Source of the DNA: Escherichia coli
GTDB lineage: Bacteria; Pseudomonadota; Gammaproteobacteria; Enterobacterales; Enterobacteriaceae
Length of the DNA stretch: 64,000 bases
Strand: one strand, 5' to 3'
Assembly: GCF_030013595.1 (NCBI RefSeq)
Contig: NZ_CP122768.1
In this document: positions 5,773 to 8,461 of the stretch, one piece after another
Layout: each line of letters starts with the position of its first letter
How positions within the stretch are numbered: position 1 is the first letter of the stretch
Position numbers and translations under genes: made by a program
Notes under the pieces: model-generated
Told to the model about the DNA's origin: nothing
Databases searched by the model: none
What the model saw: the letters and a program-made list of their open reading frames with translations, nothing else

Positions 5773-6471
5773 TTACTCGCCCTGTTGGCGTTGCAGTCTT
5801 GCTAATACATCCTGGGCGCTACTTTTATTGCTACCGCCTATTCCGGCTTCCGCCAGCTTTTCATCAAGATCGCGACCGTCTGCGACTTTTTCCAACTGTG
5901 CAGCAGCATCCAGGCGAGCCTGACGTTCGGCCTGACGCGTTTGCAGGCGTTTTAAGGATTCTGCCGCTGTCGAAACGCTGGAAGATGCGCCAACGGTAGA
6001 GGTCGTTACAGCCTGTTGTGCACGCTGCATGGCTTCAGTAGCTTTAACGACTTCCATTTGCTGCTCAAACTGAGCGATACGCTGCGCTGTCGCTGTAACT
6101 GCTTTTTCCACGCCATCACGAGAGACTTCCAGATTCGACAACACTTGCTCTTCAGCGGTAATGAGATTCTCAAGGCGCGCGATTTCTTCAGCAACTTCGT
6201 TAATCAACGACGGATTAACGTTCTTGCTTAACGCTTCCAGCGCACGGGCTTCCAGACTGGCTTTGCGCTCACGTAAATCTTTCAGCTTATCGTGACTTAA
6301 TTTCACCCGCGCCAGCAGATCAACGCGAGATTTTCCGGCTTTATCGAGTTCAGCTTTAGCGTCACGAATATGCTGTTCCAGCATGCGCACGCCCTGGGTT
6401 TCTTCAATGGATTCTTCCGCCTGAGAGATAAACGATTTCCCCAGCGTAAATAAACTTTTTAAAATTCCCAT
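5773..6471 (-). CDS. yjfJ: PspA/IM30-family coiled-coil protein YjfJ, 232 aa
   Basis: Intact ORF; long heptad-like Ala/Glu/Arg/Leu/Gln-rich helices typical of the PspA/Vipp1 family. Confidence 0.85.
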   Translation of the reverse strand: MGILKSLFTLGKSFISQAEESIEETQGVRMLEQHIRDAKAELDKAGKSRVDLLARVKLSHDKLKDLRERKASLEARALEALSKNVNPSLINEVAEEIARLENLITAEEQVLSNLEVSRDGVEKAVTATAQRIAQFEQQMEVVKATEAMQRAQQAVTTSTVGASSSVSTAAESLKRLQTRQAERQARLDAAAQLEKVADGRDLDEKLAEAGIGGSNKSSAQDVLARLQRQQGE

Positions 6472-6489
6472 AAATACCCGTCCTTGTAA

Positions 6490-6891
6490 TTAGAGTGAAT
6501 ATTCTTCTGTAATTTCAGCCAGATCCAATGCGTTATCTACCAGCGAGGTTATCTCAAGCAGGATATCTTCAAGAGAAGATTTAAGCGATAACGCCCCGAA
6601 AACAATGTAATACTCTTCATGTTGCACGCTGGAGATCCCTACCGATGACAACGGCATCATCTTCTGATTTCTTAATAAGAAGGTATTAAATTCATCTGGA
6701 TTGCTGATACTACTTACCGGACAAATAAAGGTTTCGATAATCATTTGGCGGGAAGTAAATAGAATATTGATTTGCAAATCGCCATAATCATTCATTTTAA
6801 TAATTAATGCGTTCTCGCCATTTGTTACATCAATATTTTGTTCAGGTACAGTTTGCAGCGCCGTCGCCAGCGCCAACGGATTCCATGTCAT
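6490..6891 (-). CDS. yjfI: Uncharacterised protein YjfI (DUF2170 by recollection), 133 aa
   Basis: Intact ORF, ATG at 6889-6891; first gene of yjfIJKLMC; AT-rich promoter-like sequence upstream at 6892-6970. Confidence 0.8.
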   Translation of the reverse strand: MTWNPLALATALQTVPEQNIDVTNGENALIIKMNDYGDLQINILFTSRQMIIETFICPVSSISNPDEFNTFLLRNQKMMPLSSVGISSVQHEEYYIVFGALSLKSSLEDILLEITSLVDNALDLAEITEEYSL

Positions 6892-6971
6892 ATATTATTC
6901 CATATAAATTAAGTTTAAATATTAATAAAATGAATATTTGCAGTACGTAATTATCTTACCAGCTATAGACA

Positions 6972-7680
6972 AATAAATATCCTCCGGCATAGCCGGAGGT
7001 TTTTCAAATGCGCCTGTAAGGCTCTGTTACCAGCCGCGCCCTAACAGGCGCATACGATCTGACATTTGCATTCAACTTCGTTACTTACGGCCCGTAAACG
7101 GGCTGCCCGGATATGGAATCGATAACTGCTCCCCCATTTTATCCTCTTCAAGCTGGTGCTTTATGTAGTCCTGTATCTTCGCCGTGTTCTTACCCACCGT
7201 ATCGACATAGTACCCTCGGCACCAGAACTCCCTGTTTCTGTATTTGAATTTCAAATCCCCAAACTGCTCGTAAAGCATCAGACTGCTTTTCCCTTTCAGA
7301 TATCCCATAAAGCCGGATACGCTCATTTTGGGTGGGATTTCCACAAGCATATGGATATGATCTGCGCAGCACTCTGCTTCCAGAATCCGTACGCTTTTCC
7401 ACTCACACAGCTTTCTCAAAATACTGCCTATCGCCCTACGCTTCTCTCCGTAAAACGCCAGTCTTCGGTATTTCGGCGCAAAAACTATGTGATATTTACA
7501 GTTCCAGCGGGTGTGCGCTAAGCTCTTTTCGTCCCCCATTGGGACCCCCTTTTGATTTCTTGTTTGACACTTGCAGTTGCCAGACCGCAAGGTGTTTTAA
7601 CAAATCAAAAGGGGTTTTAATAACTGGCTCAAAGCTGAAAGCTTTCCGGAACCCCCAGCCTAGCTGGGGGTTTTCTGTGC
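6972..7680 (-). mobile_element. IS200 insertion sequence (IS200/IS605 family), about 707 bp; ends estimated to within roughly 10 bp
   Basis: Contains tnpA (7081-7539); subterminal hairpin 7652-7670 (cccccagc/gctggggg); stem-loop 7546-7614 pairing the Shine-Dalgarno sequence; hairpins 6981-6999 and 7008-7053 at the other end; rlmB-to-yjfI spacing is about 710 bp longer than I expect for the native intergenic region. Confidence 0.8.
7081..7539 (-). CDS. tnpA: IS200 transposase TnpA (Y1/HUH single-strand transposase), 152 aa
   Basis: ORF 7081..7590 trimmed to ATG at 7539 (MGDEKSLAHTRWNCKYHIVFAPKYRR...HIHMLVEIPPK...); HxH motif and catalytic Tyr region recognisable. Confidence 0.9.
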   Translation of the reverse strand: MGDEKSLAHTRWNCKYHIVFAPKYRRLAFYGEKRRAIGSILRKLCEWKSVRILEAECCADHIHMLVEIPPKMSVSGFMGYLKGKSSLMLYEQFGDLKFKYRNREFWCRGYYVDTVGKNTAKIQDYIKHQLEEDKMGEQLSIPYPGSPFTGRK

Positions 7681-7682
7681 AC

Positions 7683-7709
7683 AAAAAAAAACCATCCAAA
7701 TCTGGATGG
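7683..7709 (-). terminator. Rho-independent terminator downstream of rlmB
   Basis: Minus strand reads gccatccagatttggatgg followed by nine T, about 20 nt after the rlmB stop. Confidence 0.6.
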
Positions 7710-7729
7710 CTTTTCATAATTCAGAGGAA

Positions 7730-8461
7730 CTAGCTGCGCTGTCGCACCGCTTCAAATAAGCAAATCCCTGTCGCCACAGAAACGTTCAGGGAAGAAACGC
7801 TTCCTGCCATTGGGATGCTGATCAACTCGTCGCAATGTTCACGAGTCAGGCGACGCATACCTTCACCTTCCGCGCCCATCACCAGTGCCAGCCGTCCGGT
7901 CATTTTGCTCTGATAAAGTGTATGATCCGCCTCACCTGCCGTACCGACGATCCAGATATTCTCTTCCTGCAACATACGCATGGTGCGCGCAAGGTTAGTC
8001 ACCCGAATCAGCGGAACACTTTCTGCCGCGCCGCAGGCTACTTTTTTCGCCGTGGCGTTGAGCTGTGCGGAGCGATCTTTCGGCACAATCACCGCATGAA
8101 CACCAGCGGCGTCCGCGCTACGCAGGCACGCGCCGAGGTTGTGCGGATCGGTTACGCCGTCGAGGATCAGCAGGAACGGTTGATCGAGCGAAGCGATCAG
8201 ATCCGGCAGATCGTTTTCCTGATACTGCCGTCCTGGCTTCACACGGGCGATAATGCCCTGATGCACGGCACCGTCGCTTTTCTCGTCGAGATACTGACGG
8301 TTCGCCAACTGGATAACCACGCCCTGGGACTCAAGGGCGTGAATCAGCGGTAACAGACGTTTATCTTCACGGCCTTTTAAAATAAAGACTTCCTGAAAAC
8401 GTTCAGGGGCGCGCTCCAGCAGGGCCTGCACTGCGTGGATGCCGTAAATCATTTCGCTCAT
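7730..8461 (-). CDS. rlmB: 23S rRNA (Gm2251) 2'-O-methyltransferase RlmB, 243 aa
   Basis: Intact ORF ([26 protein letters not shown]...); SpoU/TrmH-type sequence; downstream of rnr. Confidence 0.9.

Follow-up and report, generated by a model that had tools for sequence, protein, structure and literature searches.

The long inverted repeat at the right end of an Escherichia coli IS200C element as a candidate lineage-specific alternative pairing of two small conserved hairpins

The long inverted repeat between the transposase gene and the right end of an Escherichia coli IS200C element appears, from an alignment of related right ends, to be an alternative pairing, specific to one lineage, between two small hairpins that are conserved and are here called A and C. 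The element lies in a 64,000-nt stretch of DNA that we call the window (NCBI RefSeq assembly GCF_030013595.1, contig NZ_CP122768.1). From the anatomy, conservation, covariation and energetics of the right end we infer, as the most likely function and with a probability of about 0.55, that the long repeat is a lineage-conserved part of the IS200C right end that would serve in cis as a structural stem when that end is single-stranded.

The IS200C element and its subterminal hairpins

The host element belongs to the IS200 group of the IS200/IS605 family and is an already known element. Its top strand is the minus strand of the window, on which it runs TGTGCACAG...ATATTTATT (Table 1). The product of tnpA, its sole gene, matches the Pfam family PF01797 (Y1_Tnp) at 126.5 bits against a cut-off of 23, and the counterpart of tnpA at the homologous locus of one closely matching E. 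coli genome is annotated as an IS200C family transposase. The surrounding genes are those of the E. coli-type rnr-rlmB / yjfI-yjfJ region and lie on the minus strand throughout, with the tnpA ORF between rlmB and yjfI. An Rfam 15 search (cmscan, E <= 1) of positions 6400-8000 gave two matches, RF01405 at the left end and a weak one, due to chance, outside the element; none fell in 6972-7080.

The empty rlmB-yjfI site of E. coli E01 lacks exactly 712 nt. Excising these 712 nt from the window restores the empty site exactly, with no duplication needed, and TTTGT/TGT at both junctions blurs the limits by 3-5 nt. The element sits in the T-run beyond the rlmB terminator hairpin; 46 loci have T-runs as their left flanks, and the consensus of these related loci, which ends on the right with ATATTTATT, shows a T-run on the 5′ side of the left end. 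The two ends carry similar subterminal hairpins on the same strand, without terminal inverted repeats.

Table 1. Features of the IS200C element and its target, in window coordinates
Feature	Position	Strand	Basis or remark
IS200C element, 712 nt	6972..7683	-	compared with empty (L001) and occupied (L002) sites; limits ambiguous by 3-5 nt
Right-end tail ATATTTATT, to presumed right cleavage site	6972..6980	-	conservation ends 9-11 nt past the hairpin, 46 loci
Right-end subterminal hairpin, top strand CCTCCGGC-TAT-GCCGGAGG	6981..6999	-	100% paired with covariation
GAAAAA directly 5′ of the right-end hairpin foot	7000..7005	-	guide-sequence position; conserved in alignment A3
Long inverted repeat (fold S1)	7008..7053	-	minimum-energy fold, RNA and DNA
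Hairpin C, GCCT-TAC-AGGC	7012..7022	-	99.2% of cells paired; 3 of 4 pairs compensatory
Box 2, GGCTGGTAACAGA	7023..7035	-	conserved primary sequence between A and C, alignment A3
Hairpin A, GCGCC-TGTTAG-GGCGC	7036..7051	-	93.2% of cells paired; 5 of 5 pairs with double-sided changes, 65 sequences
Box 1, ATGCAAATGTCAGATCGT	7054..7071	-	begins 9 nt past the tnpA stop codon
tnpA, 152 aa, Y1 HUH transposase	7081..7539	-	ORF list; stop codon 7081-7083
Rfam RF01405 (STnc490) match	7549..7672	-	spans left-end hairpin and 5′UTR stem-loop; 146.4 bits (gathering score 56), E = 1.6e-31
Apical tnpA 5′UTR stem-loop, TTGCGGTCTGGCAACTGCAAG	7570..7590	-	complementary to box 1; art200 pairing start site
Left-end subterminal hairpin CCCCCAGC-TAG-GCTGGGGG	7652..7670	-	known bidirectional IS200 terminator (PMC4513863)
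rlmB terminator hairpin (7692-7709) and T-run (7684-7691), insertion target	7684..7709	-	junction reading, terminator scan

An earlier note, made from the letters of the window, had described perfect 10-bp arms 26 nt apart in the 3′ region of IS200, had set this region against native chromosome and had made its reading depend on conservation of the arms among IS200 copies. This description of the arms holds: ACAGGCGCAT (7044-7053) is the exact reverse complement of ATGCGCCTGT (7008-7017), and the arms can be extended to 14-nt arms (7008-7021 and 7040-7053) in which 13 of 14 positions are complementary. Because other IS200C copies match the window through ~6971, the repeat is part of the element, in the segment from the tnpA stop codon to the right end; together with an empty site that lacks the whole 712 nt, these copies bear out the placement in IS200. 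A native chromosomal or REP-like origin of the repeat was ruled out by the empty site and by the presence of the repeat in IS200 copies elsewhere. Both arms are kept in Salmonella, Yersinia and E. coli copies.

TnpA proteins of the IS200/IS605 family bind hairpins of ~20-25 nt near both ends of the element, on one strand; a short guide sequence precedes the foot of the hairpin on its 5′ side, and the DNA is cleaved a few nt away (PMC6006769). In the window, the top strand of the right end is GAAAAA-CCTCCGGC-TAT-GCCGGAGG-ATATTTATT and that of the left end is GAAAA-CCCCCAGC-TAG-GCTGGGGG. The left end holds a near-identical twin of the small right-end hairpin, which is itself 9 nt away from the element's end. 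The right-end hairpin is paired in 65 of 65 relatives (100% of cells), with compensatory changes in four of its eight pairs. The GAAAA of the left end stands at the matching place, the positions -4 to -1 before the hairpin being A in 46 of 46 left ends; by analogy with the IS608 paradigm (PMC6006769), GAAAAA probably acts as the guide. The same hairpin pair recurs in at least 80 loci found by TnpA similarity, many with compensated stems (CCACCGGC/GCCGGTGG, CCCCCGGC/GCCGGGGG, CCACCAGC/GCTGGTGG, CCACGCGT/ACGCGTGG and others), and one repeat-collapsed contig (L003) stops exactly at the boundary of the right-end tail. Given the left-end twin, the GAAAA(A) prefix, the 9 nt to the end and complete pairing with covariation, we take the small hairpin, and not the long repeat, to be the TnpA-type recognition hairpin.

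The earlier note had proposed that the transposase recognises both structures. This holds for the hairpin at 6981-6999, by its twin, prefix, position and covariation; it fails for the long repeat at 7008-7053. The long repeat does share the right end and the strand with the real hairpin, from which its foot is 8 nt away. From that foot (7008) to the right end (6972) there are nevertheless 36 nt, which take in the small hairpin, where a TnpA site would lie within ~10-20 nt of the cleavage site; the foot is preceded by no guide-like sequence; and the repeat has no left-end counterpart, no direct or inverted match of at least 7 nt being found between the window's two element ends. Its pairs are formed in 59.5% of cells across the 65 right ends, and most family members with a TnpA 66-82% identical do not have it, while the adjacent hairpin answers in every one of these respects. 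That the long repeat, itself or in part, is the subterminal structure bound by TnpA is thus very improbable, and the doubt already voiced in the note, that it is too long for such a role, was justified. The T-run that had been noticed at the small hairpin is also there: on the plus strand the 8-bp stem reads CCTCCGGC-ATA-GCCGGAGG and is followed by TTTTT, and a terminator scan finds this hairpin terminator-like on both strands.

Hairpins A and C and the long repeat

Taken simply as a pattern, the long repeat is nothing unusual: perfect inverted repeats of 10 bp or more with loops of 3-40 nt number 10 in the window, where first-order Markov simulations give 2.8 ± 2.1. It is nonetheless more than chance, since the 54-nt stretch that contains it folds better as DNA than every one of 200 shuffles (-14.1 kcal/mol, z = -3.2) and both arms are conserved across genera, being kept in Salmonella IS200F, Yersinia IS1541A, Dickeya, Citrobacter, Vibrio, Erwinia and other copies. 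The RNA fold of a 119-nt stretch reaches -46.7 kcal/mol (z = -4.5). Megablast with the 54-nt query placed a near-exact variant at 895 places in 221 complete E. coli genomes, a count that covers the near-exact variant only and is not the overall frequency of the repeat.

Relatives were picked by TnpA similarity (at least 80 loci, many of them MAG contigs), and 65 IS200-group right ends were aligned with MAFFT (alignment A3). The non-coding right end is ~110 nt long, and the stretch from stop codon to right end is conserved from Enterobacterales to Firmicutes MAGs. From the tnpA stop to the right-end hairpin the layout is a single-stranded box 1, hairpin A, box 2, hairpin C and then CGCATATGAAAAA. 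RNAalifold, unprompted, returned three hairpins only from A3: A, C and the right-end hairpin. Together these three are paired in 97.8% of cells of the unfitted alignment, with double-sided changes in 12 of their 17 pairs. Their covariation score is 0.497, against 0.149 ± 0.010 for shuffles and at most 0.078 with partners slid, although the aligned sequences are phylogenetically related and the shuffle controls consequently overstate significance. Hairpin C has the counterpart GGGC-TAT-GCCC in Firmicutes. To judge from the aligned sequences, the family-wide conserved and covarying structure between the tnpA stop and the right-end hairpin consists of the small hairpins A and C. Wobbles in hairpin A have no strand bias (13 G.T against 12 A.C), so these counts do not identify the strand or molecule that acts.

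The long repeat joins the 5′ strand of A and its flanks to the 3′ strand of C and the conserved CGCAT, and its fold excludes A and C because it uses one strand of each. Its pairs per sequence are bimodally distributed. Fourteen of the 65 right ends form 9-10 of the 10 pairs, and the other 51 form 0-8, most commonly 5. The 14 carriers are of proteobacterial type and come from E. coli, Salmonella (IS200F), Yersinia (IS1541A), Dickeya, Citrobacter, Erwinia, Enterobacter, Budvicia, Vibrio, Sutterella, a Desulfovibrio MAG and one MAG labelled Bacillota. Among them 95% of cells are paired in the long repeat and 99% in A and C. No compensatory double change in the long repeat occurs among these 14, a small and nearly invariant set in which compensation cannot tell the two folds apart; nor does any occur among 14 distinct proteobacterial-type right ends from IMG/VR.

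All variation in the pairs specific to the long repeat is of the wobble or the disruptive kind (GAGCGCC in L006, AGAGG in L007, CCTGG in L008, AAGCGCC in L013, CCTAG/TCAGG in L014, GGCGCAC in L061 and ACGCGCC in one IMG/VR copy). The two commonest variants keep their pairing through G.T wobbles on the tnpA-sense strand. The arms are ATGCGCCTGT/ATAGGCGCAT in Salmonella IS200F and Yersinia IS1541A and GTGCGCCTGT/ATAGGCGCAT in typical E. coli IS200C; the usual E. coli element has two G.T wobbles in the repeat, as does the copy that strain MS 69-1 carries at this same site, and the copy in the window is the repeat's perfect form.

The long stem is favoured energetically, at -28.8 kcal/mol as RNA and -14.2 kcal/mol as DNA, against -18.1 and -10.9 kcal/mol with A and C enforced; in the proteobacterial-type lineage it should therefore form on a naked single strand. 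The centroid fold has the stem and the terminal hairpin formed and box 1 unpaired. Three further pairs lengthen the stem in the minimum-energy fold, on one side into the last part of box 1 and on the other into the TGA of the GAAAAA region.

A stable GC-rich stem 3′ of a stop codon might also be taken for the intrinsic terminator of tnpA, and a weak native IS200 terminator is mentioned, unlocated, in a preprint (10.1101/2024.06.26.600842). The long stem is however followed by no T- or U-run on either strand, TTTGAAAAACC coming after it on the tnpA strand, and the terminator scan flags only 6981-6999 (on both strands) and the rlmB terminator. Terminator identity was ruled out on the missing T-run and on the scores, which only the small hairpin attains. 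The arms could otherwise form a palindromic protein site on double-stranded DNA; they stand 26 bp apart around a variable inner sequence, unlike a typical operator, and nothing indicates a binding protein. We regard the pair of readings, terminator or protein site, as scarcely credible.

Possible roles of the long stem

The reading that we favour is that of a structural stem acting in cis. Copies of the proteobacterial-type lineage have acquired complementarity between the 5′ strand of A plus flanks (ATGCGCCTGT) and the 3′ strand of C with CGCAT (ACAGGCGCAT), such that a free single strand prefers one long irregular stem to the two small hairpins. The stem would act while the right end is single-stranded, in the 3′UTR of the tnpA mRNA, in the top DNA strand during peel-and-paste transposition, or in both. 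There it might form a stable block that stops box 1 and the unit of GAAAAA plus hairpin from mispairing, and in RNA it might protect the 3′ end.

The chief competing reading makes the long repeat a neutral by-product, only A, C and the conserved boxes being functional and the long complementarity having no role of its own. It would have arisen when C changed from GGGC/GCCC to GCCT/AGGC beside the conserved CGCAT, which by chance repeats the 3′ strand of A. The invariant core of the repeat, GCGCC/GGCGC, is already accounted for by A, C and the family-wide CGCAT box, so that the repeat could indeed be such a by-product. Moreover, A and C are retained in the proteobacterial lineage (99.2% paired) and covary across the family, the pairs specific to the long repeat drift uncompensated, and the change in L007 preserves C as a T.G wobble yet breaks the long repeat. 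On the other side, the long stem is more stable than A and C by 10 kcal/mol in RNA and 3 kcal/mol in DNA and would, at that stability, form and displace the conserved hairpins unless prevented. A and C do not call for the AT flank or for the TGT/ACA extension, and Enterobacterales, Vibrio, Sutterella and the Desulfovibrio MAG retain 9-10 of the 10 pairs. We consider the by-product possible, and less likely than a stem that acts in cis.

Both folds could also matter, as the two states of a conformational switch in which the long stem, alternating with A and C, gates box 1 on its 5′ side and CGCAT-TGAAAAA with the transposase hairpin on its 3′ side. The folds are mutually exclusive and both fit every proteobacterial-type sequence (the 95% and 99% paired given above), the minimum-energy stem touches box 1 and the GAAAAA region through its three added pairs, and the partner of box 1 in the 5′UTR is conserved. 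The energy gap nevertheless strongly favours one state in RNA, and the Firmicutes relatives do without the alternative fold; a switch is an improbable account of the repeat.

Box 1 and comparison with known systems

Box 1 matches, as its reverse complement, the apical part of the tnpA 5′UTR stem-loop; of the 16 positions in the window's pair, 11 are Watson-Crick, 3 are G.U and 2 are mismatched. In 54 elements these positions are 88.6% paired, against 82.5 ± 0.6 (maximum 84.2) with the right-end partners shuffled among elements and 24-39% with the partners slid. The central position of the box pair occurs in all four Watson-Crick combinations. Divergent boxes keep their own complement (CGGCTCGT/ACGAGCCG in L013 and CGTAGTCTAC/GTAGGCTACG in L077), as do those of L031, L033, L035, L060 and L072, and the mean duplex energy is -28.2 kcal/mol for an element's own pair and -21.8 kcal/mol for mismatched pairs of elements. 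Wobbles in the box pair number 91 G.T against 51 A.C, a difference that is uninformative on the strand; one doubtful outer pair and the relatedness of the sequences inflate the count. Long degenerate inverted repeats running from end to end were rejected as the cause, global alignments of the left-end interior with the reverse-complemented right-end interior falling within ~1.7 sd of shuffles in five elements; the interiors of the two ends align no better than shuffles, so the similarity is confined to the box. We found no description of this complementarity in the literature searched, outside which lay the older papers on IS200 structure (NAR 1997, NAR 1999).

At the left end of IS200 a terminator hairpin occupies nt 12-34, and a 5′UTR stem-loop (nt 69-138) hides the ribosome-binding site (PMC4513863, PMC5435999). 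Pairing of art200 begins at the terminal loop of this stem-loop (PMC4513863), and box 1, being complementary to the same loop, resembles that part of art200.

A tentative proposal, for which we claim clearly less than even odds and which draws on sequence comparison, is that the IS200 right end forms a structured, conserved module in which box 1 pairs with the apical loop of the tnpA 5′UTR. As RNA, such pairing could be a fold-back of the 3′UTR on the 5′UTR, or could make a 3′UTR-derived, art200-like regulator of transposase translation; as single-stranded DNA, it could be a contact between left and right ends that brings them together. If box 1 does pair in this way, the long repeat beside it in enterobacterial copies would be a stem that presents or gates it.

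The subterminal palindromes of IS608 and ISDra2 belong to the same family, and the 19-nt hairpins at 6981-6999 and 7652-7670 fit their paradigm (PMC6006769). The 46-nt long repeat differs in being a separate structure, interior to the hairpin, without a left twin and confined to one lineage; no accessory right-end module is described for IS608 in the literature that we found. The structures of the IS200 left end, together with art200/STnc490, are likewise extra conserved folds in the non-coding ends of this element, beyond what the transposase needs. Those left-end structures act on the tnpA RNA and have been tested experimentally (PMC4513863, PMC5435999), while A, C and the long repeat of the right end have no Rfam family. 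The Haniford-lab papers on IS200 treat the left end only, the one functional construct found, the mini-IS200 of Ellis et al. 2015, took bp 566-707 as a whole (PMC4513863), and no experiments on the right end were found in the literature searched, which did not extend to NAR 1997, NAR 1999 and the 2015 family review.

As first stated, the finding has little weight: it concerns a conserved part of a familiar insertion sequence, with the transposase hairpin beside it. Its wider meaning is that the IS200 right end is more elaborate than the IS608 model would have it, with two covarying accessory hairpins and conserved boxes from Firmicutes to Enterobacteria, and that in enterobacterial copies the accessory hairpins can collapse into one long stem. 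The complementarity of box 1 and the 5′UTR is the one lead worth following. If functional, the pairing would add a layer of control, or a step of end pairing, to an almost immobile element, and it would bear on the IS200 5′UTR as a riboregulator and on the Salmonella 5′tnpA small RNA.

Two systems invite comparison here, the hok mRNA, which folds back by pairing of its 5′ and 3′ ends, and the Hfq-type small RNAs that derive from 3′UTRs. The IS200 right end differs from both in that its complementarity could act in single-stranded DNA. It resembles them in its order of parts: a single-stranded box shortly after the stop codon that is complementary to a loop of the 5′UTR, then stable stems, a terminator hairpin and a U-rich tail.

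Box 1 and the tnpA 5′UTR loop

Shortly 3′ of the tnpA stop codon lie ~15 nt (box 1) whose reverse complement forms the apical loop region in the tnpA 5′UTR stem-loop, the pairing site of the antisense RNA art200. Both sequences are present in the window and in the compared loci L003-L084. Box 1 covaries with the 5′UTR loop across the IS200 group, with 88.6% of positions paired vs 82.5 ± 0.6 with shuffled partners, a difference whose significance is overstated since the elements compared are phylogenetically related. Mean duplex energy is -28.2 kcal/mol for box 1 and loop from the same element vs -21.8 kcal/mol for mismatched element pairs. As far as the literature was accessible, no description of this complementarity was found.

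Features of the element and its surroundings in the window
Feature	Position	Strand
Box 1	7054-7071	minus
5′UTR stem-loop, apical loop region	7570-7590	minus
Right-end non-coding region	6972-7080	minus
Rfam STnc490 (RF01405) match	7549-7672	tnpA sense
yjfI and yjfJ	5773-6891	same as tnpA
rlmB terminator (insertion target)	7684-7709	

The Rfam STnc490 model matches the start of the element with 146 bits on the tnpA-sense strand and only 21 bits on the opposite strand; therefore, despite the published papers, in which STnc490/art200 is antisense to the tnpA 5′UTR, the model seems to be of the sense 5′tnpA RNA.

Right-end layout and downstream genes

In an alignment of 65 IS200-group right ends, the non-coding region as a whole has a small-RNA-like layout: a single-stranded box is followed by two covarying hairpins (A and C) with the conserved box GCTGGTAACAGAG between them, then by an A-rich linker and a terminator-like hairpin that ends in a U-rich tail. 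Rfam has no family for this region. Downstream of the element are yjfI (133 aa) and the PspA/IM30-like yjfJ (232 aa). Since these genes share the tnpA strand, transcripts exiting the element would enter yjfI unless stopped at the right-end hairpin.

Copies and fragments elsewhere

Among 5,426 complete E. coli genomes compared with window positions 6850-7800, only 4 have an IS200 at the rlmB-yjfI site. Strain MS 69-1 has a copy (96.8% identity across the compared region) with the long right-end inverted repeat in its wobble form, vs the perfect form in the window. Solo right-end fragments without tnpA (~112 nt, 96% identical), which begin just past the stop codon and reach the end of the element, occur on many plasmids, with an oxidoreductase gene on one side and an acetyltransferase gene on the other. 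Plasmid loci with IS200 right ends include a Salmonella Kentucky plasmid (L088), many E. coli IncF plasmids (H41-H46) and L085-L087. On other plasmids, including pO157-like ones, decayed right ends have both the long-repeat arms and the small right-end hairpin eroded.

Insertion target

A T-run with consensus TTTTTTGT directly precedes IS200-group elements (left flanks of 46 loci), two of its positions being T in 43 of the 46, and G+C-rich sequence lies upstream of it. Judged by sequence, the two together are a predicted intrinsic terminator tail; the target in the window is the rlmB terminator. With its hairpin and T-run the target resembles IS200's own right end, a hairpin followed by ATATTTATT.
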